A DNA stretch of 64,000 nt from a virus (IMGVR_UViG_3300032322_002674:109458-173457); one strand, 5' to 3'; counted from the first letter of the stretch, positions 2,833 through 61,695 are shown. Translations and numbers: made by a program. Notes: generated from the sequence alone by a model not told the origin.

Positions 2833-3041
2833 CATTAGAAAAAACTTTGTTAAATCTGGGTAGAAATAGTGGGAATTTTTTAACTAATGATTTAATTAAA
2901 AAATCATTAGTTATTTGGTATGATAATCGAAAATTTAATTTAACATATTTAGATGGTAATTATGATGATGAAAACTATAAATTTTTAAAAACTTCTGACC
3001 AGATTCAGATTTATGAAATTTTAAAAGAAGTTCCTTTTTAA
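2829..3041 (+). CDS. hypothetical protein (start moved to the ATG overlapping the upstream stop)
   Basis: Listed ORF 2748..3041 overlaps the previous gene by 85 nt. An internal ATG at 2829 gives ATGA coupling. Confidence 0.3.
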   Translation: MTLEKTLLNLGRNSGNFLTNDLIKKSLVIWYDNRKFNLTYLDGNYDDENYKFLKTSDQIQIYEILKEVPF

Positions 3042-4376
3042 GAACTCTTTTGCGTTTAACCCAAATATTCTATCAACCAATTCTTTAACATATCTACCTC
3101 CTATTAAAGAATCAATTTTTTCTTTGGAGTAAATTAAATCCCCCTTAAATAAAATGTCCTTCGGACAAATTAAAAAGTTCAAAATTTCAAAGTAAAGTTT
3201 TGGAAAATCCTCACTTTTTAATAGTCCTGGCAAGTGTGTAATCATTCCATCAAAATCACTTCCAATTGAAATGTGATTCCAAGTTTGAATTCCACCAAAT
3301 TCAACACACTTTAAAATATTTGCAATAATGACTTCTGTGACATTATCTTCGGTTATTTTAACTCTACTACCCACAAGACGTTTTTTGTCCATCTGAATAC
3401 CAATTAAACCCCCAGAATTAACAATTTCTCTTACATCCTCACCACATATATTAATTTCCAATTCATGAAAAAAAGATTTTTTATTTCTTTTGTGGTCATC
3501 CTTAATATCTGATAAATTTTCCCAAGTGGATATTCCTGTATGCGAACAAATAATTGGTATATTTTTTCCCCTTATGTGGTTATAAAAATCTCTTCTTGAA
3601 TCCCCATCAAAATGTTTTATATCAATTAAAATTCCCCTTTCAATAAGTGAATCAATTATTTCCAATCCCAAAGGTGAAATTCCTTTAAATTCATTTTTCT
3701 GTGTGAATAAGAAACTTTGTACCGAATCTGCATTGGATGATAACCCATTCCAAAAATGATGATTAAAAGTTATAAAAAAAGGTTTTAAGGGAAGTGAATC
3801 CAATCTACTTAATAACAATTCTTTATTTGGATTTTTTAATTCATCATAAGTTAATAAACATTGAATTCCCTCAATTGATGGAATAACACAAAGGGTTTTT
3901 GGATTTTTTCTGTGAATCCTTTCTATGTGAGAATAGTTTTTTGCAATAACAAAATTATAAAGTTGGGTGTTATTTTTTTCTTGTTCTTTTAACCATAACA
4001 TTTCATTATAAATAAAATTATAATAATCTAAGGTAACTTTATTTTCTGGAACTCCTGTTAGGTGAGAAAGAAGTGGTAAATCCAATTTTTTTGGTAGAAT
4101 TTTTGTATTAAAGAATTCCTTTTCAAGTGCAAAGAATGATGTGATTATTATGTTAAAATTTCCTTGAATAAGTGATTGAAAATGTGATTGAGAATGTTTT
4201 GGTATATCCTTTGTTAAAAGTGATATTATTGATTTCACTAATTTATGAAAAACATTCTTTGATTTTTGATTATTTTTATGTTCAATGAAAATATTTCCAT
4301 TATTGGTAAAAGGTTTAAGTGTTGGGTGGGTGTGAATATCAATGAACATAATTTGGTTTATAAATAAATATTGCAT
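3021..4376 (-). CDS. metal-dependent amidohydrolase, membrane dipeptidase (M19)-like
   Basis: N-terminal 'IDIHTHP' metal-binding motif, 'ICSHTGIS', 'SIGSDFDG' (the GxDFDG of the renal dipeptidase family), 'SIEGIQCL'. Confidence 0.4.
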   Translation of the reverse strand: MQYLFINQIMFIDIHTHPTLKPFTNNGNIFIEHKNNQKSKNVFHKLVKSIISLLTKDIPKHSQSHFQSLIQGNFNIIITSFFALEKEFFNTKILPKKLDLPLLSHLTGVPENKVTLDYYNFIYNEMLWLKEQEKNNTQLYNFVIAKNYSHIERIHRKNPKTLCVIPSIEGIQCLLTYDELKNPNKELLLSRLDSLPLKPFFITFNHHFWNGLSSNADSVQSFLFTQKNEFKGISPLGLEIIDSLIERGILIDIKHFDGDSRRDFYNHIRGKNIPIICSHTGISTWENLSDIKDDHKRNKKSFFHELEINICGEDVREIVNSGGLIGIQMDKKRLVGSRVKITEDNVTEVIIANILKCVEFGGIQTWNHISIGSDFDGMITHLPGLLKSEDFPKLYFEILNFLICPKDILFKGDLIYSKEKIDSLIGGRYVKELVDRIFGLNAKEFLKRNFF

Positions 4377-4379
4377 TAA

Positions 4380-4406
4380 TTTGGTAGTAAAAAAATAGTA
4401 TTTTTG
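4380..4406 (+). promoter_or_regulatory. putative Bacteroidota-type promoter for the cas operon (TTTG-N15-TATTTTTG)
   Basis: TTTG at 4380-4383 and TAttTTTG at 4399-4406, about 19 nt upstream of the cas3 ATG. Confidence 0.35.
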
Positions 4407-4424
4407 TGTTCATAAATTTAAAAT

Positions 4425-6638
4425 ATGTTAGGAAAAACAAACGAATTATTAGATGTACATTCTTTAAAAGTAATGGAATATTCTTTAGAGTTTTTAAAAA
4501 GATATGATAGTCTTAATAAACAACATAAAAAAGTTTTAGAAATATCATCACTTTTACATGATATAGGTAAATGTACAGAAGAGTTCCAAAGATTCTTAAA
4601 AGATGAAGATTCACAAAGAAAATTTACTCATAATGAAATCAGTTGGGCATTTGTTAGCAAACATTTAAAAATTGATGATTATGAATATAATATGATATTG
4701 GATTTAATTTATTGGCATCATGGGTTTCCTTATTTTAAAAAATATGGCGATAAAAAATTAACAAATCAAGATGTTTATGATTCAATTACTGAAAAAGATA
4801 TTGAATCAATGAAGAAATATTTCTTAAAGTTTCCAATAACAAAAAAATGTTTTGTGGATGATAATGGTAGAAAAGAAATAAATCCACCACTTTTTTATGA
4901 ATTTTTGGAATTAAAAGGAAAACAAGTTGAAAAAACTTTATTAAGAAGTATTTTAATTACATCTGATAGATTGGTTTCATCATTTGATGGTAATTATCCT
5001 AATTCAGAAGAATTTATCCAAAAACTCTTGGAAAAGGAAATAGTAAAAAATTATAATCCACCATTTAATAATGAAAGATTTGAACTTCAAAAAAATATTG
5101 TTACACAACTTAAAGGTACTAATTTTGTTAATGCACCTGCTGGGTTTGGTAAAACTTTAATTGGATTTCTAAAAAATCTACAATCAAATAAAAAAATGAT
5201 TTGGGTTTGTCCAAGAAATATTGTTGCAGAACAAGTTTATCGTGAATTAAAAGATTTGATTGGTAAATTCTGTGTTAATGTTAAAATTGAATTATTCTAC
5301 CAAAGTGAAGTGAAAATGTCTAATTGGAATGGATGTGGTGGGTTTGATTCTGATATTATTGTAACTAATATAGATAACTTTTTATCCCCATCAGTTAATA
5401 GTGGAAGAATGAATGAACTTTATTTTATAAATGATTGTGATGTTGTTTTTGATGAATATCATGAATTAATTACAGAAGGTGCATTATTTTCTTGTTTTAT
5501 TAACTTAATGAATATTAGACATAAATATACTAATTCTGATACAATTCTATTATCTGCAACACCATTTGATATTTCTTATATGTGGGATACCCCATCAAAT
5601 AAATCAAAATTCTTACCAGAGAAAAATCATCATTACCCACCTGCACATGATAAAAAATATAAACTTAATTTTTCTGAAAAATCTGATGTTTCAGTTTTAA
5701 ACTTAGAAGAAAATGGTGATAATTTAATCATCTTAAATTCTATTAAGAATACCCAAAAAGTGTATAGAAACTTAAATAAGAAAATTTTAATTCATTCTGA
5801 TTATTTAGAAGAAGATAGAAAGAAAAGAACTGATTTAATTTATTCTTTATATGATAAATATTCAAAAGATGGTGTAAAAGAAGATGTTGTTTCTTCACTT
5901 ATTTTACAGGCATCAATGGATATTTCTTTTAAAAATTTATATGAATCAGTTTTATCACCACAAACAACAGTACAAAGAATAGGTAGAACAAATCGTTGGG
6001 GTAAATATGATGATAGTACTATTAATATTATTAATCTTAATAAGGATAAGGCAGAACGTGCAGTAAAACACATTCATTATACATTTGACTTATCAACTAA
6101 ATGGTTTAATTTCTTTAAAGAAAATGGAAATAACAAGAATTTGACTTTGTCAGAAATTTATTCTATATTTAATAAATTCAATGAAATAAATCAAAAAGAA
6201 ATTAAAGACTTTATTCAAGAAAGATTTCTTACTTCTTGTGAATTATTAAGTGGAATTTATCCTATTAAATTTTTTAATAAAGGAAAACAAAAAACTGATA
6301 TTAAAAACGCAGAATCAAATAAACTAAGACTTGTTGGTTCAAATATATTTTATATTTGTCAAAAAGTTAATTCAGAAGAATATACTGATGTTTTTAACCA
6401 ACAAATATATAAATCAATTGGTGAAGATTTCCATGAAAAACAAAATGTAATGGAAAGATTCAAAAAAACATATCGAGCACTTTGTGATGATAAACGATTT
6501 GAATTCAGAGAAATGTTGGAAAAATTTGAAAAATTAAATATTGATATTGTTCGTAGAATGGGGAAAAAATCAAATACACCTTATATAAGGTATGATAAAA
6601 AATATGATTCTGAATTAGGATTAATAGATACCGAATAA
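4425..6638 (+). CDS. cas3: Cas3 HD nuclease + SF2 helicase (single-chain, compact, 737 aa)
   Basis: HD domain 'LLHDIGK', 'HNEISW', 'YWHHG'. Walker A 'NAPAGFGKT', DExH 'VVFDEYHEL', motif III 'LSATP', motif VI 'VQRIGRTNRWG'. Confidence 0.85.
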   Translation: MLGKTNELLDVHSLKVMEYSLEFLKRYDSLNKQHKKVLEISSLLHDIGKCTEEFQRFLKDEDSQRKFTHNEISWAFVSKHLKIDDYEYNMILDLIYWHHGFPYFKKYGDKKLTNQDVYDSITEKDIESMKKYFLKFPITKKCFVDDNGRKEINPPLFYEFLELKGKQVEKTLLRSILITSDRLVSSFDGNYPNSEEFIQKLLEKEIVKNYNPPFNNERFELQKNIVTQLKGTNFVNAPAGFGKTLIGFLKNLQSNKKMIWVCPRNIVAEQVYRELKDLIGKFCVNVKIELFYQSEVKMSNWNGCGGFDSDIIVTNIDNFLSPSVNSGRMNELYFINDCDVVFDEYHELITEGALFSCFINLMNIRHKYTNSDTILLSATPFDISYMWDTPSNKSKFLPEKNHHYPPAHDKKYKLNFSEKSDVSVLNLEENGDNLIILNSIKNTQKVYRNLNKKILIHSDYLEEDRKKRTDLIYSLYDKYSKDGVKEDVVSSLILQASMDISFKNLYESVLSPQTTVQRIGRTNRWGKYDDSTINIINLNKDKAERAVKHIHYTFDLSTKWFNFFKENGNNKNLTLSEIYSIFNKFNEINQKEIKDFIQERFLTSCELLSGIYPIKFFNKGKQKTDIKNAESNKLRLVGSNIFYICQKVNSEEYTDVFNQQIYKSIGEDFHEKQNVMERFKKTYRALCDDKRFEFREMLEKFEKLNIDIVRRMGKKSNTPYIRYDKKYDSELGLIDTE

Positions 6639-6668
6639 ATTTAATAACCATAAAAAACAAACAAAAAA

Positions 6669-7754
6669 ATGTCAAAAAAATCAGTATTTTCGGTTGAGGA
6701 AGTTCAACCAAAACAAAAAGAAAAAACAGTTAAATCTATTCTTTTAAGATGGAAATTAAAAGGTAGGGGTGTTGTAAACTTTGATTCATCTGACCAAAGA
6801 TTTGTACTTAATAGTACTGATTTGAGTTACATGAAAACCCAACATAAAAACACCAATTATGCAAAGAAAAGACTTTATAAGAATGGTGATAAATTTTCTT
6901 ATAAGTTAACAACTTCATCAGATTTCTTATTGCATAATATTTTTTCTGATATTCCATTCCAATCACCAAATGTTCAAGATAATGTGGTGGTATTACATTC
7001 TTATCTTGCATCACCATCAAAATTGGTTAGAGGTTGGTTGGAAACATCAAAAACAGTTACCTTAAAAAGAAAAGGTTCTTTAACTTTGGTTGATGCAGAA
7101 CAAACAAATGATTCAGTTTCACATATTGAAACTTTTGCAAAATCTGGTAGAAAAGATGATGAAGATAATGGTGCAACCGATAATACTTTCTTCAAAAAAG
7201 AAGTTGTTGGTGATATTGATTATCAAACCGTTGGTTCAATTGATTTATCACAATTACAATTTGTTAGTTGTGATGATATTTTTGATAGAATGTCATTTGA
7301 CCCAGACAATTTTGAATTGTTTAAGAAATTCTTGCAAACAAAGTTACCAAACTTTAATTCAGAATTAGGTTATTTCCAAATGAAAAATTCAATCATTGAA
7401 ATACCTGAATGGGGATTCTTATTAAGTCAAGAAAATGTTAACTTTTTGGTTAATGATTTGTTACAAAAAATGTTAAGATTAAATGTAACAAAACGAGATG
7501 CATTTGTTAAATCAAATGAATTGGAAGTTAAATTTGTTTATGATGTATTAACTGATACATTAGAAGATGAAAATGGTTGGGTTAAATTTACACCACAAAC
7601 AAAATTGGAATTTGAATCAGAATTATTCTATAATGAAGTTGATTTAAAGAAAAGTAAAGAATTAAGAGAATCAATTGAAGTAGAATATAAAAACAGAAAG
7701 AAAAAATCTGCTGAGAAAAAAGAATCAAAAAAAGGAAAGAAAAATGAAGAATAA
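6669..7754 (+). CDS. cas7: Cas7-family Cascade backbone subunit (putative)
   Basis: N-terminal 'GVVNFDSSDQRFVLNSTDLSYMK' resembles the Cas7/CasC 'LNRDD...RVRISSQSLKRAMR' region. It lies between cas3 and cas6. The lysine-rich C-terminus overlaps the next gene by 11 nt. Confidence 0.5.
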   Translation: MSKKSVFSVEEVQPKQKEKTVKSILLRWKLKGRGVVNFDSSDQRFVLNSTDLSYMKTQHKNTNYAKKRLYKNGDKFSYKLTTSSDFLLHNIFSDIPFQSPNVQDNVVVLHSYLASPSKLVRGWLETSKTVTLKRKGSLTLVDAEQTNDSVSHIETFAKSGRKDDEDNGATDNTFFKKEVVGDIDYQTVGSIDLSQLQFVSCDDIFDRMSFDPDNFELFKKFLQTKLPNFNSELGYFQMKNSIIEIPEWGFLLSQENVNFLVNDLLQKMLRLNVTKRDAFVKSNELEVKFVYDVLTDTLEDENGWVKFTPQTKLEFESELFYNEVDLKKSKELRESIEVEYKNRKKKSAEKKESKKGKKNEE

Positions 7755-8598
7755 ATTTTTGGTATTGGGTTTTAAAAATGCTAGACAATTTAGACCTGGA
7801 AAATATAAGGATAAAGTTGGTGATATAAATGGTACAAGGGATAGGGATGATATTGATTTTTTTGAAGAACCTATAACAAAATATCAGGTATCAAATCTTC
7901 TTCATGTTCTTTTTGGTGAAAGACCATCACCAACATTAAGGGAAACCTTAATTCCAAGAATTGATTATTATTTTGATAAGGCAAATAATTCTTATATTAA
8001 ACTTGATTCTTTAAAAATAAATAATAATTTTGTTTATGAAACCATGCAGATTAAAAAGTCTGCATGGAATTCTTGGAATCCTAACGTTTGGATTTATTGG
8101 GAAAAAGTGAAACAAATGTTGGATGAAAATTATGATGATTTTATTTCATTAATGAAAAAAGAATATGGTTTTAATCCTTTGGAAAAATCATTTAATGAAT
8201 GGATTCCAATTATTAGGGAAAATGGGGTTATTAAAAACTATTTGTTAAATGTAAAGGGTAAAAAACCTATTTATGATTATGTTTATAGTGATAATAAACA
8301 AGAAAGAGCAAATATAAATAAAAACTCAAGAACAATGAGAACTGTTTTAACTGCCCCTGTTAATATAACAAAACATCATGGTGAAATAATTATTCCAGTA
8401 AGTGATGAAGATTTATCAAAATTATCAAGAGCAAATGGAACAATTCTTGATGGTGGTTTTGTATGGATAAAAGGGGTTTTTAGTGAAAATCAAATTGATT
8501 GGGATGGGTTTCAATCTGTTAATGAAATTAATTCAGAAAAAACAAATTTAACAAAGTATTATGAGAATAAAAATAAATTTAAGCAAGAACAAAACTAA
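7744..8598 (+). CDS. Cascade subunit of unassigned family (Cas5- or Cas8-like by position)
   Basis: Translationally coupled between the cas7-like gene and cas6. No clear motif. Assigned by operon context only. Confidence 0.35.
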   Translation: MKNKFLVLGFKNARQFRPGKYKDKVGDINGTRDRDDIDFFEEPITKYQVSNLLHVLFGERPSPTLRETLIPRIDYYFDKANNSYIKLDSLKINNNFVYETMQIKKSAWNSWNPNVWIYWEKVKQMLDENYDDFISLMKKEYGFNPLEKSFNEWIPIIRENGVIKNYLLNVKGKKPIYDYVYSDNKQERANINKNSRTMRTVLTAPVNITKHHGEIIIPVSDEDLSKLSRANGTILDGGFVWIKGVFSENQIDWDGFQSVNEINSEKTNLTKYYENKNKFKQEQN

Positions 8599-9259
8599 TG
8601 TTCCAATTCAAAACCAAACCCTATTAAATTCTTGGATTCATAAGATATTGGGTGAAAATAATAAGTGGCACGATAAAAAGTCCAACTATTCGATTTCTTC
8701 CCTAAGAGGTGGAAAAATGAATAATGACAAACAAACCTTATCTTTCCCTAATGGTGGATTTATTACTGTATCATCATTGGATGATGAATTAATAACAACT
8801 TTCTTATTGGGTGTTATGAAAAATCCTAATTTTGGATTTGGAATGAGTTTTGTTGGTGTGGATTATATTAAGGAAAATTTTCATGATGGTTGGAATTATT
8901 TTGCAGCATTATCACCCTTTATTGTTAAGGAGTATAATGATGGAAGATATAAATTTTTAACCCTTAAAGATGAAAACTTTGAGGAAAAATTAAAGGAATA
9001 TCTTAAAAAGAAATTAATTCCTTATGATTTGGATTTAACTGATTTTGATGTTAAAATTGGTGATAACAAATCAAACAAAGTTAAACAAATTTTGGTTAAA
9101 AATGTTATTAACTTTGCAAATCAATGTCAAGTTAATATTTTCTGTAACAAAAAAGTTGCAGAAACCTTATACAACATAGGAATTGGACAATCTACTGGTA
9201 GTGGTTTTGGTACAATATACAAAACCGAAAATCATAAAACTTACAGAAACCAGGATTAA
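8561..9259 (+). CDS. cas6: Cas6 crRNA endoribonuclease
   Basis: Typical N-terminus 'MRIKINL...VPIQNQTLLNSWIHKILGENNKWHD'. C-terminal glycine-rich loop 'GIGQSTGSGFGTIYK' (GhGxxxxxGhG). The gene ends 100 nt before the array. Confidence 0.75.
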   Translation: MRIKINLSKNKTNVPIQNQTLLNSWIHKILGENNKWHDKKSNYSISSLRGGKMNNDKQTLSFPNGGFITVSSLDDELITTFLLGVMKNPNFGFGMSFVGVDYIKENFHDGWNYFAALSPFIVKEYNDGRYKFLTLKDENFEEKLKEYLKKKLIPYDLDLTDFDVKIGDNKSNKVKQILVKNVINFANQCQVNIFCNKKVAETLYNIGIGQSTGSGFGTIYKTENHKTYRNQD

Positions 9260-9361
9260 AAAAATGGGGTACAACATTATATTTTATGGTATATTTCCTC
9301 ATTTTTTCTCACCCAAAAACAACCTCAAACCCAATAAAATCAAGGGTTTGAGGGGTATTAC
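9260..9361 (+). promoter_or_regulatory. putative CRISPR leader
   Basis: AT-rich sequence between the cas6 stop and repeat 1. The degenerate repeats lie at the opposite end of the array. Confidence 0.4.
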
Positions 9362-9998
9362 ATTGTAGTCTATATTAATCCTTAGTGGAATCACAACTTT
9401 GGGTCACCAATAGGAAAAGGTGAAGGAATTGTAGTCTATATTAATCCTTAGTGGAATCACAACCTTTGTACAGGTTTTGTACTACCTGATGGAATTGTAG
9501 TCTATATTAAACTTTAGTGGAATCACAACGACATACTCAAAGACTCGAACTATAAAGTGATTACAGTTTATATTAATCCTTAATCGAATCACAACCGAAC
9601 ATCTTGTATTTGGTCTGCAAGTTCTATTGTAGTCTATATTAAACTTTAGTGGAATCACAACCCCAAAAACATTGATTTTACAGGGTTTTAATTGTAGTCT
9701 ATATTAAACTTTAGTGGAATCACAACAAGATGATGTGACATGATACAAATCGAAAGATTGTAGTCTATATTAATCCTTAGTGGAATTACAACATTGGTTT
9801 GGATTCTAATTATTTACATTTATTGTAGTCTATATTAATCTTTAGTGGAATCACAACATACGTTAGACGCAAGAGACAACGTTTATCATTGTAGTCTATA
9901 TTAGTTATATTAAATCTTTAGTGGAATCAAAATATATCTGCTGTAGTTAAATTCATTTTTATTGTTGTAGTTTTATATTAATCCTTTAATTGGAATTG
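9362..9998 (+). CRISPR. CRISPR array: 8 intact 36-bp repeats (ATTGTAGTCTATATTAATCCTTAGTGGAATCACAAC) with 29-30 bp spacers, plus 2 degenerate trailer repeats
   Basis: Repeats start at 9362, 9428, 9494, 9560, 9626, 9691, 9757 and 9822. Degenerate units at 9888-9933 (10-bp insertion) and 9961-9998. All spacers are unique. Confidence 0.95.
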
Positions 9999-10061: not shown

Positions 10062-10391
10062 ATGAATCTGAATAAAACCATTTCTAATCTAAGAAAGTCA
10101 AAACATAGTTTTTTTAACTTAAATTCTGATTGTTATATTAACTATGACCTATTAAAAGTAGGGGTATCTTATAATGCAAAAGTATATGATATTAATGAAG
10201 ATGAAGTATTTGTTCTTAATTCTTATATAAGAAAAAATTGGGAATATATCGAAACTTTTGAATATGAAAATAATCCTTTAATTATGTCTTTTAAAATTTA
10301 CGAACCAACAACAAATGATTATATTTACATTCCTTTTAATTGTTTATATAAACCAGTACCAGAAGAATGGTTTTGTTTTTTAAATAAATAA
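10062..10391 (+). CDS. hypothetical protein, tandem paralog 1
   Basis: N-terminus 'MNLNKTISNLRKSKHSFFNL' is near-identical to the next gene. Confidence 0.45.
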   Translation: MNLNKTISNLRKSKHSFFNLNSDCYINYDLLKVGVSYNAKVYDINEDEVFVLNSYIRKNWEYIETFEYENNPLIMSFKIYEPTTNDYIYIPFNCLYKPVPEEWFCFLNK

Positions 10392-10521: not shown

Positions 10522-10818
10522 ATGAATCTGAATAAAACCATATTAAATTTAAAAAAATCACATAAAGGATTTTTTAATCTGAAAAAAGGTGATGAGGTTT
10601 GGTTTGAAATATTAAAAGATAAAATTTATGTCTATAAAAAATATGATAATTTTACTGAATTTTTATATAATAGAAATTATCATAAAAAAATAAGAGAATG
10701 TGGAGGTCATTTTGAATATTATTCAAAATATTATGATGAAAAATATTATGATGAAAAATTTTCTGTTAGAAAAAATACATTTGCAAATTTATCATATAAT
10801 ATTTTTTTAAATGAATAA
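10522..10818 (+). CDS. hypothetical protein, tandem paralog 2
   Basis: N-terminus 'MNLNKTILNLKKSHKGFFNL'. The 5' DNA sequences are also similar. Confidence 0.45.
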   Translation: MNLNKTILNLKKSHKGFFNLKKGDEVWFEILKDKIYVYKKYDNFTEFLYNRNYHKKIRECGGHFEYYSKYYDEKYYDEKFSVRKNTFANLSYNIFLNE

Positions 10819-11341
10819 ATTGATAACAAAAATAAAAAAAATAAAACTTTATTGGTTTTTATTTAAAAGAATAATTAAATGGATTCCCCTTTTAATAAAA
10901 GATAGGGATTATGATTATGTTTATACATTAGATATTTTAAAATTTAAATTGCAATTAAAAAAAGAACGTTTTAAAAGTTATGATGATTTAAACGTTGTTA
11001 ATCAAATAAATTTGGTTATAAAATTAATTGATAAATTTAAAAATGAAGAATATCTTGATGAATATTTAAACTATGGAGAATATAAATATGAATTTCTTGA
11101 TAACGATATTAAAACAACTTTAATTTCAGAAAATTATGATGAATATATTAATAAAAATAAATCATCATTAAAAAGAATGAACAGAATTTTCTCAAAAAAT
11201 ATTGATTTGTTGGATTCAGAAAGTTTTTCAGTTGAGGAAAAAAAGTCAATATCAATGGATATTTCCTTATATAAACATGACAAATGCAAAAGAATTTTAT
11301 TTAACTATCTTGCACACAAAATTGAAAATTGGTGGAATTAA
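10811..11341 (+). CDS. hypothetical protein
   Basis: 176-aa ORF, no motif. Confidence 0.35.
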   Translation: MNKLITKIKKIKLYWFLFKRIIKWIPLLIKDRDYDYVYTLDILKFKLQLKKERFKSYDDLNVVNQINLVIKLIDKFKNEEYLDEYLNYGEYKYEFLDNDIKTTLISENYDEYINKNKSSLKRMNRIFSKNIDLLDSESFSVEEKKSISMDISLYKHDKCKRILFNYLAHKIENWWN

Positions 11342-11353
11342 TATTTATGGAAT

Positions 11354-11770
11354 ATGATTTTTACCAAATTACAGTTTATTCTAAATGAAGGGTTGATTAA
11401 AATTCAACCCAAAGAAAAGGTTTTGCAAATCTTAAAAAAATTCAATCCAAAACCATCCAATAATTCACAATTTCTAATTCCTTTAATTAATTCTGAACAA
11501 CTACCAGAAATTCTTACCTTAACAAATAATTTAGGTTATTTCCCTTCTTCATTAAGAATATTAGAAGAAGGTAGTTATTTAACTCATAAAAAATTTAAAA
11601 AAGAATTTATTGATTTTTATTTGGAAGATAAAACTAATAAAGTGTTTATTGTTTTTGAACCAAAGTTTGATGTTGAAGTTAGACCAAAAAATAATATATT
11701 ATACCATATCACCAAAAAAAGATTTATTTATTGCAAGATAAGGAAAGTGTTAAAGAATTACTTTCTTTGA
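11354..11770 (+). pseudogene. truncated paralog of the Tpt1/KptA-like gene at 1616
   Basis: 'LPEILTLTNNLGYFP...VFIVFEPKFDVEVRPKNNILYHITKK' aligns with the 1616 protein. The similarity stops right after 'YHITKK', where TnpB-derived sequence begins. Confidence 0.5.
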
Positions 11771-12200
11771 TTGGTTTGGAAATGGAGAATTTAAATGTTT
11801 CAGGGATGATGAAAAATAGTAATTTGGCAAAATCCATTCAGGAATTAAGTCTTTATAGATTTAAACAAATATTAAAATATAAATCTGATTGGTATGGAAA
11901 ACAAATTATTGAAATTGATAGATTTTATCCATCATCGAAATTATGTTCCAGTTGTGGTGAAAAAAATGATAATTTAAAATTATCTGATAGAGAATGGATT
12001 TGCAACAATTGTGGAACACATCATGATAGAGATTTAAATGCCTCGATTAATATATTAAATGAGGGAAAAAGAATTTTAAATAAAATACCCATTCGTAGTG
12101 GGGAATTAACGCCTTTGGAGAGTTATCAATAGATGCTCGTTGAATTAGGAAATTACTATATTTTATTATATAGTTTTATACGGTTGGTTTGCAAAAACTG
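11731..12200 (+). mobile_element. tnpB: IS200/IS605-family TnpB (OrfB) remnant: C-terminal ~130 aa only, plus a possible right-end/omega-RNA remnant
   Basis: 'GLEMENLNVSGMMKN.NLAKSI' (RuvC-II region), 'YKSDWYGKQIIEIDRFYPSSKLCSSCGEKN...REWICNNCGTHHDRDLNASINIL' (zinc finger plus RuvC-III DRDxNA). The N-terminal ~270 aa are absent. Confidence 0.6.
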
Positions 12201-16269: not shown

Positions 16270-17250
16270 ATGAATATTTTAATAATCGGTGGAGGATGGG
16301 TAGGTTGTCACTTGGCAATGAAATTAAGGGATAAACATAATATAACTATTTTTGATAAAAATATTGAATTGTTTTGTGAAACATCCTTTAAAAATCAAAA
16401 TAGACTTCATTATGGTTTTCATTACCCAAGAAACCATAGAACAAGAATGTTATGTAAAGATACTTATCAAAAATTTATTGATGAATATGGATTTTTAGTG
16501 GAAGATGTTAAAAATAATGTTTATTGTGTACCAAATAAATCACTAATAGATTTCGATACCTTTAAAACAATTTTTAGGGATTTTGAATATGATATTTATA
16601 ATGATAAATTTAGTACTGATGGTTGTATTAAAACAAAAGAAAAATTTATAAATTATAGAGTTGCAAAAGAATTTTTTAATAAAGAACTAAAACATTTATT
16701 TAAACAAATTAAGGTTGATACTATTGAAGAATTAAAAAATAATTATGATTTAATATTGAATTGTACCAATAATAATATACCATCTGATAATGGTTATTTT
16801 TATGAGTTAACCATATCATTAATAATTGAAAAAATAAAAGATATTAATTTTGATTCATTAACCTTAATGGATGGTAAATTTTTTTCAATATACCCCTATG
16901 ATAATAATCTTTTTACATTAACTGATGTGGAATATACTCCATTTAGAAAATTTAAAAATATTAATGATTTAGAAGTAGTAAAAAAAGAAATTAATGATAA
17001 TGTTATTAGTGATATTAAAAATAAAATGTTTAATAAAGTAAATGAATATTTTCCAATAGATGAATATTTTACTTATAAAGATTATTTTTTGTCTTTAAAA
17101 GTAAAGAATATAAGTGAATCTGATGATAGATACCCAACCATAATAAAAAATGATAACGTGGTTAATATATATACAGGAAAAATACAGGGAATTTTTACCA
17201 TAGAAGAATATATAAAAAATTTAATAAATGAAAATACCACTTTATTGTAA
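16270..17250 (+). CDS. NAD(P)/FAD-binding Rossmann oxidoreductase (sugar dehydrogenase-like)
   Basis: N-terminal 'MNILIIGGGWVGCHLAMKL' GxGxxG dinucleotide-binding motif. Confidence 0.4.
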   Translation: MNILIIGGGWVGCHLAMKLRDKHNITIFDKNIELFCETSFKNQNRLHYGFHYPRNHRTRMLCKDTYQKFIDEYGFLVEDVKNNVYCVPNKSLIDFDTFKTIFRDFEYDIYNDKFSTDGCIKTKEKFINYRVAKEFFNKELKHLFKQIKVDTIEELKNNYDLILNCTNNNIPSDNGYFYELTISLIIEKIKDINFDSLTLMDGKFFSIYPYDNNLFTLTDVEYTPFRKFKNINDLEVVKKEINDNVISDIKNKMFNKVNEYFPIDEYFTYKDYFLSLKVKNISESDDRYPTIIKNDNVVNIYTGKIQGIFTIEEYIKNLINENTTLL

Positions 17251-17264
17251 TAAACTTTGAACAA

Positions 17265-18296
17265 ATGACTAGAAATGAACTTAAATTTTTGTTTAATACC
17301 CATTTAAAAAGGGATTATACACCTAATGAATGGATAGTGCATGGTAAAAAAAATTACCATTTATTTGAACATGAAATATTAAATTGTAGTGAATATTTTT
17401 TAATAAATAAAAAAGATGTAAAAATTGCACTTTTATTAAGTGGACATATAAGGAAAAATTCAATATATAATAATATTTCAAGTGCACTAAATAGATATGA
17501 TACTGATATTTTTATACATACTTGGGATAATTTTGGTTTGAAAGGTACTGAAACTAACGTTAATGACCATACCAATGAAAGTGAAATAGAAAAAGAAATA
17601 CAAAAATTTAATAATGTTAAAAGTTTTATAATTGAAAATAATAAACAATTGATAAATGGTATGGAAAAAAGAAGTGGATATTTTAATTTTTCATCTCCAG
17701 AACCTTTTATAAAATCACAACTTTATTCAATTAATAAATCTTATGAATTAATGAATAATTACTCCAAAGAAAATAATATTAATTATGATATTGTTTTTAA
17801 ATTTAGATTTGATTGTGATATTTTTTATTTTAATTTAAAAAAACATACAATAAATAACATAAAGAATAATAATATTATTTTCACATCAAATAATGATTGC
17901 AATCATAGTCACATGGATTATGGAACTTCTTGTTGGGCATGTGATAATATGTATTACAAATATGGATTAAAACATGTTCATATTTTTGAACATACAAATG
18001 TTATATGTGATTTATTCGCATACGGAAATCAAAAATCAATGGAAAGTTATTGCAATTTATATAATGTATATGATGAATTAATTAGTGAATTTGAAGAAGA
18101 AAATAAAAAACAATTGGAAAAACATAGTAGTAATTTAAAATTAATTAATGGTGATTATAAATTAGAAGGTATGCGTGGACATATTGATTCATTATATTAT
18201 TACAATTGTTCTTATCCTGAAAGATTATTACAAAAATATTTAAAGGATTATATGTTAGTAGAATCAAGGGATGTAAAATTAAAATTAGTAAGATGA
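17265..18296 (+). CDS. hypothetical protein (Cys/His-rich segment)
   Basis: 343 aa. 'CNHSHMDYGTSCWACDNMYY'. No family assigned. Confidence 0.4.
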   Translation: MTRNELKFLFNTHLKRDYTPNEWIVHGKKNYHLFEHEILNCSEYFLINKKDVKIALLLSGHIRKNSIYNNISSALNRYDTDIFIHTWDNFGLKGTETNVNDHTNESEIEKEIQKFNNVKSFIIENNKQLINGMEKRSGYFNFSSPEPFIKSQLYSINKSYELMNNYSKENNINYDIVFKFRFDCDIFYFNLKKHTINNIKNNNIIFTSNNDCNHSHMDYGTSCWACDNMYYKYGLKHVHIFEHTNVICDLFAYGNQKSMESYCNLYNVYDELISEFEEENKKQLEKHSSNLKLINGDYKLEGMRGHIDSLYYYNCSYPERLLQKYLKDYMLVESRDVKLKLVR

Positions 18297-19048
18297 AAAT
18301 ATTAATAGGAAACACAGGTTTAGTAGGTCAAACATTAAAAGAAAAAATAAATTTTGATTTTGAATACAATTCAAAAAATATTGACTTATATAATGTACCA
18401 GATAATTGTGATTTATATTTGTCTTGTTTACCTGCAACAAAGTGGTTGGTTAATCAAGATACCAAAAAAGATTTGGAAAATATTAATAATATCATAAATA
18501 TTATTAATAAATTTAATTACAATAAAATATTTTTAATATCAACAATTGATGTTTATAATGATTCACCTTTAAATAAAGATGAAGATTTTGAACCCATTTT
18601 TAAAAAATTTTCTTATGGTGGTAATAGATTTTTATTTGAAAAAATGGTTAAACAATATGTTAAATATAAAAATTTAAAAATTTATAGATTACCAGCACTT
18701 TTTAATAATAAAATCAAAAAAAATATTTTATTTGATTTAATCAATAATAACAATATAGAAAAAATAAATGTTAATAGTTTTTATCAATGGTTTAATTTAG
18801 ATAACTTACATAATTTTATTGAAACCACTAAATTTGAAAATAGGGAGATATATAATTTATTTACAGAACCAATAAATACTAAAGATATAGTAAATTTATT
18901 TCCTCAACATTGGGATAAAATAAGAAATTATGGTGAATATGTTATATATAATTATAAAACTAATTTAAATGATAATGGGTATATAGATACTAAGGAAAAT
19001 ATATTAAAAGAAATAAAAACTTTTATAAATGAATTTAACAGTAAGTAA
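18293..19048 (+). CDS. NAD-dependent epimerase/reductase-like (RmlD-like) protein
   Basis: N-terminal 'MKILIGNTGLVGQTL' glycine-rich Rossmann motif. Confidence 0.35.
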   Translation: MKILIGNTGLVGQTLKEKINFDFEYNSKNIDLYNVPDNCDLYLSCLPATKWLVNQDTKKDLENINNIINIINKFNYNKIFLISTIDVYNDSPLNKDEDFEPIFKKFSYGGNRFLFEKMVKQYVKYKNLKIYRLPALFNNKIKKNILFDLINNNNIEKINVNSFYQWFNLDNLHNFIETTKFENREIYNLFTEPINTKDIVNLFPQHWDKIRNYGEYVIYNYKTNLNDNGYIDTKENILKEIKTFINEFNSK

Positions 19049-53728: not shown

Positions 53729-54208
53729 ATGCTCACTTATAAAACTAATCATTTGCGTATGTGGAGTATGAATAGAACGGAATGTGTCAATTGGAATAAC
53801 AATTTTTATGTTGATAATATTAACATTAATAAATTTATTGAAATAATGTCAAAATTTAAAGAACAATTAGAAGAATCTCTGACTTTCTTAAAACTAAAAA
53901 AAGAAGGTGAAGGTTTCATCACCATTGGTAAATTGCACCCAAATAAAAAAACAGGTAATCCACAACATCCTGGTCATGTTGGTAGGGTTATTCATTTTGG
54001 TTTACTGATGGAATCACAACCTGATTTACAACCACTTTTTTTATCAGAGGTAATATCACAGAAATGGGTCTTTGTTATTCAAAGATTACATAAGGACTTT
54101 AAGGTGCAAGAACAAATTATTTTATCCATTGTTGAACAAATGAAAAAAATGGGTAGGAAACGAGTTACAGAAAAAGAATTTCAGGAATTGGGTTATTCAG
54201 AAGATTAA
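53729..54208 (+). CDS. hypothetical protein
   Basis: 159-aa ORF. Confidence 0.35.
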   Translation: MLTYKTNHLRMWSMNRTECVNWNNNFYVDNININKFIEIMSKFKEQLEESLTFLKLKKEGEGFITIGKLHPNKKTGNPQHPGHVGRVIHFGLLMESQPDLQPLFLSEVISQKWVFVIQRLHKDFKVQEQIILSIVEQMKKMGRKRVTEKEFQELGYSED

Positions 54209-57088: not shown

Positions 57089-57112
57089 TATAACGGTTGC
57101 AAATATATACAG
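57089..57112 (+). promoter_or_regulatory. repeated intergenic element TATAACGGTTGCAAATATATACAG (copy 2)
   Basis: See copy 1. Preceded by TGATATT as in copy 3. 43 nt upstream of the ATG at 57155. Confidence 0.45.
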
Positions 57113-57154
57113 TTTTGGAATTAGAATTACAAACCTTAAAATACAAGATAAATT

Positions 57155-60246: not shown

Positions 60247-61695
60247 ATGTCAGTAGAAAAAAATCCACTTTTAGGTCTTGATGTTTACAAAATGGGTCAC
60301 ATGGAACAATATGTTCCTGGTTGTAATAAAGTATATAACCATTTGGTTGCACGTTCAGATAAACATTTTAAGGATGTTCTTTATTATGGTCAACAAGGTA
60401 TTTTAAAAAAATATCTTTCTCGTTTTATTACTGAAAGTAACGTTGATGAACATCTTAGATATAAAAAACATATCTTAGGTTCAGAAGGAAATAACAGTAG
60501 AAAACAATTAATGGATTTATTAAAATTAGGTTATTTTCCTTTACATATAAAATCTGTACCAGAAGGTACAATAATACCAACTAAACAAGTATTACAAACA
60601 ATAGTATCAACACATGATGATTTTCATTGGTTGCCAGGTTTTTTTGAATCTTTAATTTTAAAAGTTTGGTTTCCAACAACAGTTGCATCTTGTGTTTATA
60701 AATATAGAAAATTAGTTGAAGAAAAGTTTAAATTAGTTGATTTAGAAAATCATTGGAAAAAAGATTATACAGTACATGATTTTGGGTATAGAAGTGATTC
60801 AAGTGAAGAATCTGCTGCAATTTCTGGAAGTGCATTTTTATTAAGTTCTTATGGTAGTGATACTGTATCATCTATTCCTTTTATATTAGATTATTATAAT
60901 GGTTCTTTAGATGATAATATAATGAAATCTGTTCCTGCATCAGAACATTCTGTTATGTGTAGTTTTGGTCGTGAAGATGAATTAGCTGCCTTTGAAAATA
61001 TGTTAAAACTTTATCCTGATGGTATTGTGTCAATAGTTTCAGATACATATAATGTATATAAAGTGTTAACAGAATTTGCAACAAAATTAAAACCACAAAT
61101 TTTATCAAGAGAAGGTAAGGTAGTTTTTAGACCTGATTCTGGTAATCCTGAATATATAATTTGCGGTAATCCTGAATCAGAAGAAGATTCTTTGGAATGG
61201 AAGGGTGCAATAAGATTGTTGGATGAAGTTTTTGGTCATACAATAAATAAACAAGGTTTAAAGGTTTTAAATGATAAAGTTGGTTTAATTTATGGTGATG
61301 GTCAGTATTATGAAAGATATGAAAGAACATTAAATAAATTAATTGAAATGGGATATTCACCAGAAAATTTGGTTATTGGGGTTGGTGGTATTATGCGTAA
61401 TCATTCAAGAGATACTTTAGGTTTCGCATTAAAGGCAACTTATGTTGAAGTAAATGGTCAACCAATAGAAATTATGAAAGACCCAATTACTGATACTGGT
61501 AAAAAATCGTTAAAGGGGTTAATGAGATTGGATTACGAAAATAATCAATTTATAACAAAAGACCAAGTATCATGGGAAGAAGAAAGGGGTGGTTTGCTTG
61601 AAACTGTTTATTATAATGGTAAAATTGTTAAAGAATATTCATTTAATGAAATTCGTGAAAGAGTAAAAAATAGTTTATGTCAAAAACAGAATTAA
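60247..61695 (+). CDS. nadV: nicotinamide phosphoribosyltransferase (NAMPT/NadV)
   Basis: 'NPLLGLDVYKMGH', 'HIKSVPEGTIIP', 'HDFGYRSDSSEESAAISGSAFLL', 'SIVSDTYNVYK', 'RPDSGNP', 'GDGQYYE', 'VIGVGGIM' all align with the NAMPT motifs (NILLATDSYKVTH, IKAVPEG, HDFGYRGVSS, SVVSDSYD, RPDSGNP). Start placed at the Met preceding 'SVEKNPLL'. Confidence 0.9.
   Translation: MSVEKNPLLGLDVYKMGHMEQYVPGCNKVYNHLVARSDKHFKDVLYYGQQGILKKYLSRFITESNVDEHLRYKKHILGSEGNNSRKQLMDLLKLGYFPLHIKSVPEGTIIPTKQVLQTIVSTHDDFHWLPGFFESLILKVWFPTTVASCVYKYRKLVEEKFKLVDLENHWKKDYTVHDFGYRSDSSEESAAISGSAFLLSSYGSDTVSSIPFILDYYNGSLDDNIMKSVPASEHSVMCSFGREDELAAFENMLKLYPDGIVSIVSDTYNVYKVLTEFATKLKPQILSREGKVVFRPDSGNPEYIICGNPESEEDSLEWKGAIRLLDEVFGHTINKQGLKVLNDKVGLIYGDGQYYERYERTLNKLIEMGYSPENLVIGVGGIMRNHSRDTLGFALKATYVEVNGQPIEIMKDPITDTGKKSLKGLMRLDYENNQFITKDQVSWEEERGGLLETVYYNGKIVKEYSFNEIRERVKNSLCQKQN

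Follow-up and report, generated by a model that had tools for sequence, protein, structure and literature searches.

A likely I-F2-related type I CRISPR-Cas cassette for interference only, on a phage-like element

The stretch of DNA analysed here, 64,000 nucleotides (nt) of a contig from the viral database IMG/VR (IMGVR_UViG_3300032322_002674:109458-173457; hereafter the window, with positions counted from its first letter), carries at 4380-9998 a compact type I CRISPR-Cas locus. Between 4425 and 9259, four co-oriented open reading frames (ORFs) on the + strand encode proteins of 737, 361, 284 and 232 amino acids (aa), followed by an array of 36-nt repeats, with the sizes that an original prediction from the sequence alone had given. 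The general features of a type I system are present: a Cas3 with HD and superfamily 2 (SF2) helicase domains, and a Cas7, a Cas6 and, by its fold, a Cas5 beside the array. No gene other than these four lies between cas3 and the array. The prediction had called all four genes translationally coupled, which fits two of the three junctions: cas7 and cas5 overlap by 11 nt and cas5 and cas6 by 38 nt, whereas a 30-nt gap separates cas3 from cas7.

Four cas genes and a repeat array

The first gene, cas3 (4425-6638, +), encodes an HD nuclease and SF2 helicase of 737 aa without a Cas2 domain. As predicted, it is an HD plus DExH-helicase Cas3: Pfam (HD, Cas3_HD, DEAD, Cas3-like_C_2), NCBIfam (TIGR01596 cas3_HD, above cut-off) and PADLOC (best model Cas3fv, 3.7e-52) agree on its domains. 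Among solved structures, the closest is the Cas2-3 of the Shewanella I-F2 system (9g44_A, 1.9e-30), the other Cas3 structures matching only at ~1e-4. From residue 6 onward the protein is colinear with residues 115-853 of the 994-aa Cas2-3fv of Legionella (25% identity, 1e-31); because the alignment begins at residue 115 of the latter, the window protein corresponds to the Cas3 part without the Cas2 domain. The HD motifs (H12, H45-D46, H69, H98-H99, D181) and the helicase motifs (Walker A GFGKT, DEYH, SAT, QRIGRTNR), as read from the sequence, are all intact.

The 361-aa product of cas7 (6669-7754, +), previously described as Cas7-like, proved to be a relative of Cas7fv, the backbone subunit of I-F2. 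It matches the Cas7fv models of NCBIfam (5.3e-24, 85 bits) and PADLOC (8.6e-19) and both solved Cas7fv chains (PDB 9g44_F and 5o6u_C, ~3e-13), belongs to the Cas7fv-like family PF28157 according to precomputed Pfam assignments, and is 25% identical to annotated plasmid cas7fv genes. The only Cas7 models matched were Cas7fv and Cas7f. Its lysine-rich C-terminal tail, past residue 338, is unaligned in every relative.

The third gene, cas5 (7744-8598, +), encodes the 284-aa protein that had been left unassigned, with a Cas5-like role suggested by gene order. Profile library scans (Pfam, NCBIfam, PADLOC) gave no sequence-level match, PDB sequence and profile searches and an NCBIfam scan of 15 members gave no link to Cas5fv, and an hhalign comparison of its profile with Legionella Cas5fv was not significant (E 0.056), with an N-terminal helix motif in register. 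The AlphaFold model, built with 15 homologues (predicted local distance difference test score 78.7), has a beta-sheet core resembling an RNA recognition motif and a helical insertion of ~75 residues at about residues 119-193. Cas5fv was the top match of this predicted structure in two independent structure searches, and in Foldseek the Cas5fv chain was the sole match at E <= 0.001 (3e-4, probability 0.97). We therefore conclude that the 284-aa protein is probably a Cas5 of the Cas5fv kind, on the basis of its predicted fold and gene position and not of its sequence.

The last gene, cas6 (8561-9259, +), encodes a putative endoribonuclease for precursor CRISPR RNA (crRNA) of the Cas6/I-B kind. 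The 232-aa protein scores above the cut-off of TIGR01877 (cas_cas6, 1.8e-22), contains Pfam Cas_Cas6_C (1.2e-10) and matches PADLOC Cas6b across its full length (1.2e-45). It carries the glycine-rich loop GIGQSTGSGFG near its C terminus, and comparison with Cas6f gave no similarity, in line with the predicted Cas6 that is not of the Cas6f kind.

The array (9362-9998, +) consists of nine 36-nt repeats at 9362-9933 and a degenerate tail; the repeats recur every 65-66 nt and enclose eight 29-30-nt spacers, and the number of such repeats expected by chance is zero. The ninth and last repeat is interrupted by a 10-nt insertion, and beyond it, at ~9961-9998, comes one more repeat-like unit in a decayed state. 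The heterogeneity of the repeats is unusual: two main variants can be told apart by stem positions 18 and 20, one copy has only 81% identity, and the distal copies are decayed, which suggests an old array that is slowly decaying or has recombined. Folding of the repeat RNA was no better than that of shuffled sequence, so the description of the 36-nt repeat as weakly structured was apt. What is conserved across 13 repeats of the family is the 3' end GGAATCACAAC with a 5-bp mini-hairpin, the common 3' end reading ...ATTCCGTAAGGGAATCACAAC. Over these 13 repeats the mini-hairpin is paired in 87.7% of cells, with compensatory changes at two pairs, and all shifted registers score lower. Rfam found neither CRISPR-DR nor another family on the array, and a literature search with the repeat sequence returned unrelated primers only.

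We place the putative leader in the 102 nt between the cas6 stop codon and the first repeat (9260-9361, +). The degenerate repeats are at the array end far from cas6, and the sole spacer difference between two near-identical relatives, described below, is at the cas6-proximal end. A promoter and terminator scan found 41 sigma-70 sites in comparison with 46 expected, so that no leader promoter could be called.

Some further observations concern repeats and their surroundings. An isolated 15-mer, TGATGGAATCACAAC, with two mismatches to the repeat 3' end, occurs at 54006-54020 within the ORF 53729-54208; it is probably a chance occurrence, as 0.13 such matches are expected. In a relative with 50% GC (L002), a cluster of short periodic repeats upstream of cas3 (5978-6172) is possibly a second mini-array. 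Directly after the window array lie two small paralogous ORFs (10062-10391 and 10522-10818, +; 109 and 98 aa), both starting MNLNKTI.NL.KS and 79% identical over their first 56 nt; their array-adjacent position may be meaningful. Upstream, directly beside cas3 and divergent from it, a 451-aa M19 membrane-dipeptidase-like gene (3021-4376, -; Pfam 3e-14) is not kept next to the cassette in relatives.

The predicted absence of cas1, cas2, cas4, cas8 and cas11 from the window stood up to both searches of its 74 ORFs of at least 100 aa: Pfam contained none of the five in a complete list of 24 families, and PADLOC returned only TnpB/Cas12f-like and helicase-like proteins and a few others. One ORF of this set matched the PADLOC model 'Csx1 (found elsewhere)' at 3e-15; it was not among ten large ORFs that were re-scanned. 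We also covered ~10 kb around the cassette in eleven distinct related loci. Precomputed Pfam assignments for either side of four relatives contained no adaptation genes, nor did the PADLOC matches listed (weakest 7.6e-14) for 118 flanking ORFs of seven further relatives. As there is no Cas1, Cas2 or Cas4 and the Cas3 has no Cas2 domain, the cassette cannot acquire spacers by itself. Almost all CRISPR systems of huge phages are reported to lack Cas1, Cas2 and Cas4 (PMC7162821; also PMC11656645, PMC12607003). An adaptation-less CRISPR system on a phage is thus not new, since it has already been reported for huge phages, where it is near-universal (PMC7162821), and the original prediction overrated the surprise on this point.

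A cassette shared by large viral contigs

The cassette belongs to a large family. A search with Cas7 retrieved 118 proteins at E <= 0.001, all of them PF28157 and many on contigs of 90-380 kb. The profile of the Cas5-like protein retrieved 518 representatives of 50%-identity clusters, 219 of them at E <= 1e-30; this large family is covered by no library. In IMG/VR, the cassette is present on 19 viral contigs, eight of which exceed 200 kb (lengths include 124, 141, 181-256, 310, 362 and 389 kb). The four genes occur in every locus examined, in most of them in the order of the window, the other arrangement being cas7-cas5-cas6-array-cas3 (L021-L028 and L031). The array directly follows cas6 in every locus, with 36-nt repeats, spacers of 29-31 nt and up to 37 repeats, and the cassette with its 36/30-nt array is kept down to 30-35% identity across the eleven distinct loci. 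In L021, cas3 is followed by a large ORF (16577-18526), and one of the 118 flanking ORFs scanned in seven relatives matches a DinG-type helicase model at 6e-52.

The cas genes are all that the window and the flanks of its relatives have in common, and the cassette therefore behaves as a mobile unit. The neighbours in relatives include genes for IF3, PTH2, a tRNA-binding protein, NUDIX, deoxycytidylate (dCMP) deaminase and phosphoribosyl pyrophosphate (PRPP) synthetase, a set typical of huge phages. Among deposited phages, no similarity to the locus DNA was found and a tblastn search with Cas7 gave no match, so that no deposited phage genome has the cassette. When 185,579 species genomes were scanned for paired GGAATCACAAC motifs, only two true arrays came to light. 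The first belongs to L031, a relative with all four genes in a Bacteroidetes metagenome-assembled genome (MAG). The second (L030, 19-252) lies at the end of a chromosomal Bernardetiaceae MAG contig, DAISIL010000108.1, which has 53% GC and carries genes for a histidine kinase and for malic enzyme/PTA; the cas genes of this array lie outside the contig, and the 36-nt repeat, GTTGTCAAATCCCTAAATTTGCAAGGGAATCACAAC, is of the repeat family of the phage arrays. Such repeats (36-nt GTTG...CACAAC, with 30-nt spacers) are, we presume, similar to those of Bacteroidota type VI-B arrays.

The window itself has 25% GC, one tRNA-Lys, no rRNA and a coding density of 88%, with ~100 mostly small ORFs, largely on one strand and mostly of unknown function. 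The recognisable genes are those for NadV, PRPP synthetase, PhoH, a primase, DHFR, UvdE, S-adenosylmethionine synthetase, glycosyltransferases, a holin and an amidase. Searches of the 64 kb found no family of capsid, terminase, portal or tail proteins. The earlier attribution of the surrounding genes to a virus or other mobile element is supported by the phage-type auxiliary and lysis genes and by IMG/VR relatives of 100-389 kb, although no virion gene was seen in the window; we consider a viral origin of this contig likely.

Two features of this setting deserve mention in their own right. The NadV/NAMPT gene (60247-61695, +; phrog_448, 1e-146) and a match elsewhere in the window to ribose-phosphate pyrophosphokinase (phrog_619, 1e-58) form a pair that resembles the NAD+ salvage or reconstitution sets described in jumbo phages. 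At 11731-12132 (+), 1.8 kb downstream of the array, lies a C-terminal TnpB/Cas12f-like fragment of 116-133 aa (Pfam Cas12f1-like_TNB, 9e-26; PADLOC Cas12f/Cas12u matches). The ORFs upstream of it (10811-11341 and 11354-11770) have no TnpB similarity, and it therefore looks like a truncated IS605-family remnant and not like a second effector. With this neighbour being merely a C-terminal fragment, we rejected a type V use of the array; a function like that of CRISPR-associated transposons (CAST) was rejected as well, given the absence of Tn7 genes and the intact Cas3.

Spacers, their targets and their supply

The spacers of the window have a mean GC content of 0.36, compared with 0.247 for 30-mers of the window (P = 5e-5). 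Being richer in GC than the element that carries them, they are of foreign origin. In the databases searched, we obtained one informative near-match, that of spacer 3 (9530-9559, +), to the 5' end of a type I restriction-modification (R-M) methylase gene, hsdM. Spacer 3 matched four JGI contigs, L046 at 26 of 30 positions, with positions 1-23 exact, and L044, L045 and L047 at 25 of 30. The four mismatches with L046 fall on spacer positions 24, 27, 28 and 30, three of them on third codon positions; 24 and 30 are sixth positions, and in type I Cascade, the crRNA-guided effector complex, every sixth guide position is flipped out and unpaired. The protospacer covers codons 5-14 of a protein of 685-695 aa with HSDR_N_2 and N6_Mtase domains. 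On L046, genes for HsdS and a GmrSD-like protein come after the methylase gene, and the target region is a type I restriction-modification and defence island. The methylase family is large (>8000 clusters, 82-98% identity) and resides on chromosomes of 2.7-5 Mb, its named members being mostly Bacteroidota, with some Bacillota. Given the seed hit, the chance that at least six of the ten remaining positions match is 0.02-0.09, so that the derivation of spacer 3 from an hsdM-type gene is suggestive, not conclusive. The 5' flank of the near-protospacer, on the spacer-identical strand, is ..CA; a single imperfect protospacer gives no basis for a protospacer-adjacent motif (PAM).

The eight spacers, concatenated, had no match in INPHARED and PLSDB. 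Searches with seed patterns that left every sixth base free found nothing for spacers 1, 2, 3, 6 and 8 in IMG/VR and nothing for spacer 1 in the JGI metagenomes. A candidate target of spacer 4 in two homologous IMG/VR contigs was judged a chance match (21/30, in a 139-aa ORF, with mismatches throughout the last 7 nt). The newest spacer of L015 matched its own array only. When all spacers of the family arrays were compared with all fetched loci, there were self matches and one weak match of 22/24: spacer 23 of the L021-L028 group against window positions 57106-57129 (E 0.002 for 153 queries searched against 0.5 Mb), a match that may be accidental or may be left over from the targeting of one phage by another.

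How, then, would arrays without adaptation genes receive new spacers? Within three groups of near-identical contigs, the arrays are identical across samples. The informative pair is L015 and L016, which are 99.86% identical over 13.9 kb and have unrelated cas6-proximal spacers (L015 11030-11059, L016 11640-11669) above a shared older array. A difference at the leader end is the pattern expected from polarised acquisition and thus suggests occasional reloading in trans.

Interpretation and relation to known systems

Taken together, the evidence makes it likely, in our judgement, that the locus is an intact, interference-only type I cassette related to I-F2 (I-Fv) on a phage-like element. The system is probably functional. 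Its mechanism, inferred by homology, would begin with transcription of the array from the cas6-proximal leader. Cas6 would then cut each 36-nt repeat near its small 3' hairpin and stay on the 3' end, Cas5 would cap the 5' handle, from ...AUCACAAC, and about five or six copies of Cas7 would line the 30-nt guide to give a Cascade without a large (Cas8) or small (Cas11) subunit. In I-F2, Cas5 reads the PAM and Cas7 recruits Cas3 (PMC12956352); likewise, the helical insertion of the candidate Cas5 would read the PAM here, and the Cas7 backbone would recruit Cas3, which would unwind and shred the target DNA. The spacers would either be inherited or be supplied in trans by an adaptation module of the host. 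From the foreign spacers and the hsdM-type spacer, the likeliest use would be to attack host defence loci or the host chromosome during infection; rival mobile elements are possible further targets.

Several observations weigh against this reading. The heterogeneous repeats and decayed distal copies of the window array could mean an ageing locus. No window spacer has a perfect protospacer in the databases searched, and the hsdM match may be due to chance, since it covers 26 of 30 positions and came from a seed-based pattern. The relatives' arrays are unchanged across samples in all cases but one. Cas7, at 85 bits, falls below the NCBIfam Cas7fv equivalog cut-off of 200, and Cas5 is without a significant sequence link to Cas5fv. 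Finally, no structural phage gene is seen in the 64-kb window, which is part of a 173-kb source contig.

The most serious alternative concerns the use of the cassette: it might serve mainly in competition between viruses or other elements, with spacers directed against rival phages or plasmids of the same host and not against host defence genes. Competing phages are reported targets of huge-phage spacers (PMC7162821), seven of the eight window spacers are without an identified target, R-M methylase genes also occur on mobile elements, and the 22/24 match of the L021-group spacer to window 57106-57129 is a weak hint in the same direction. However, IMG/VR and INPHARED yielded no convincing spacer match, the 21/30 alignment of spacer 4 with its mismatched last 7 nt included, and the only credible near-match lies in a gene family of 2.7-5 Mb bacterial chromosomes. 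We regard competition as a real contender that nonetheless falls short of an even chance.

Could the locus instead be cellular, belonging to a Bacteroidota chromosome, plasmid or integrated element with its adaptation genes elsewhere in the genome? The relative in a Bacteroidetes MAG (L031), a Cas7 relative named 'Bacteroidia bacterium', the chromosomal Bernardetiaceae contig (L030) whose end holds an array of the same repeat family, and the lack of a virion gene in the window all speak for it. Nevertheless, this is improbable: the window, at 25% GC, has a single tRNA, no rRNA and no cellular core genes, its ~100 mostly small ORFs of unknown function are largely on one strand and accompanied by phage auxiliary and lysis genes, and IMG/VR lists 19 relatives as viral contigs, IF3, PTH2 or tRNA-binding genes being present on some of them. 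Moreover, viral contigs are often mis-binned into MAGs.

Somewhat less probable again is that a once complete system has left a decaying remnant that no longer functions. The missing adaptation genes, the heterogeneous and decayed repeats, the short array, the truncated TnpB-like gene 1.8 kb downstream and the lack of perfect targets would be accounted for in this way. Yet the four ORFs are unbroken and keep their conserved catalytic and structural motifs, and the same four genes, and only these, recur in >500 clusters and in lineages down to 30% identity, beside arrays that reach 37 repeats. That the four-gene set is kept across lineages argues for purifying selection on the adaptation-less form itself. 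Least probable of all is a reduced type I-B system that lost Cas8b and is not a relative of I-F2, since what recalls I-B, namely the best match of Cas6 to Cas6b models (1.2e-45) and a weakly structured 36-nt repeat with ~30-nt spacers that is unlike those of I-F, is outweighed by a Cas7 that matches Cas7fv and Cas7f models only, a Cas3 closest to Cas3fv and the I-F2 Cas2-3 structure, a Cas5-like fold closest to Cas5fv and the gene order of I-F2. A better fit is a chimaeric origin in which the effector is of the I-F2 type and the Cas6 and repeat are of the I-B type.

In its most far-reaching form, the reading of an I-F2-related cassette would make this locus the founding member of a type I sub-variant that is abundant, phage-specific and unclassified. 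The sub-variant would join an I-F2-type effector to an I-B-type Cas6 and repeat as a chimaera and would rank with the most compact systems based on Cas3 (~2.6 kb for Cascade, 4.8 kb with Cas3); it would serve phages as a programmable counter-defence against host R-M and other defence loci, and would be reloaded in trans by host adaptation modules with arrays of the GTTG...GGAATCACAAC repeat family. We put this combination forward only tentatively, and would bet against it as a whole. Subtypes I-F1 to I-F4 and an I-F1/F2 intermediate appear in the 2025 classification, which has nothing like this variant (PMC12669027). In the literature searched we found no description of it; the 2022 Cell survey of virus-encoded systems (Al-Shayeb) may include it. 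New here are the variant itself, with its Cas6b-type nuclease and repeat, Cas2-less Cas3 and divergent Cas5, and its abundance. If active, it would mean that Cascades without Cas8 and Cas11 are not a rarity of a few gammaproteobacterial plasmids but are widespread, with >500 clusters, and favoured on large phage genomes. The pairing of an I-F2-type effector with another Cas6 and repeat and a Cas2-stripped Cas3 would amount to a natural experiment in Cascade modularity, and the cassette offers a very compact Cas3-based editor. The near-match of a spacer to hsdM makes it testable whether phages aim CRISPR at restriction-modification systems, and the replacement of one leader-end spacer among near-identical phages raises the question of how adaptation-less viral arrays reload.

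Finally, we would like to set the cassette beside the systems that it most resembles. The IV-A3 and I-F3 (CAST) systems are likewise adaptation-less class 1 systems on mobile elements, with spacers or crRNAs supplied in trans (bioRxiv 10.1101/2023.06.23.546257; PMC11656645). However, they are without a Cas3 nuclease and act by repression or guided transposition, whereas the Cas3 of the window appears catalytically intact. The I-F1 system of the Vibrio phage ICP1 is also a phage-encoded type I system with a Cas3 nuclease, used against an anti-phage element of the host; in contrast to the window locus, it comprises Cas1, Cas2-3, Cas8f (Csy1), Cas5f, Cas7f and Cas6f, has 28-nt repeats and acquires spacers itself. 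The adaptation-less systems of huge phages (Al-Shayeb et al. 2020, PMC7162821) share with it the lack of Cas1, Cas2 and Cas4, compact effectors and, if the phage-like contig is indeed viral, the setting, and their spacers are directed against hosts or rival phages (PMC7162821). Their I-C variant, however, is without Cas6, uses Cas5d-like processing and has another helicase in place of Cas3 (PMC7162821), whereas here an HD-Cas3 and a Cas6 are present. Type I-B has the same Cas6 family and, as here, a long repeat (36-37 nt) of weak structure whose 3' hairpin is short, but it also has Cas8b, Cas7b and Cas5b and normally Cas1, Cas2 and Cas4; no Cas8b was found in the window.

The closest relative is I-F2, for which we used Shewanella putrefaciens CN-32, the Legionella and Acinetobacter plasmids and PDB 5O6U and 9G44 as comparators. 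The canonical I-Fv operon reads cas1f, cas2-3, cas7fv, cas5fv, cas6f (PMC4937334), so that the gene order of the window mirrors that of the minimal I-F2 without a large subunit, as originally proposed. Both systems are without Cas8 and Cas11, share the order cas3, cas7, cas5, cas6, array and are associated with mobile elements. Their Cas7 proteins are homologous (~1e-13, 25% identity), the HD and helicase parts of Cas3 are colinear (1e-31), and the predicted Cas5 fold has its best match there. The differences are nonetheless considerable. Canonical I-F2 has cas1, of which there is none in the window or in the flanks of its relatives, and its Cas3 has 882-994 aa, whereas that of the window has 737 aa and lacks the N-terminal Cas2 domain. 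The Cas6 is of the Cas6/I-B family here and a Cas6f (Csy4-type) there, and the Cas5 has 284 aa compared with 336-337 and is unrecognisable by sequence, while Cas7 remains under the NCBIfam equivalog cut-off. Canonical repeats of 27-28 nt, spacers of 32 nt and a GG PAM (PMC12956352) contrast with repeats of 36 nt, spacers of 29-30 nt and a lone near-protospacer with a 5' CA flank, not CC/GG. The cassette is thus a system that would work like I-F2 but departs from it in several of the features that define membership of that subtype.

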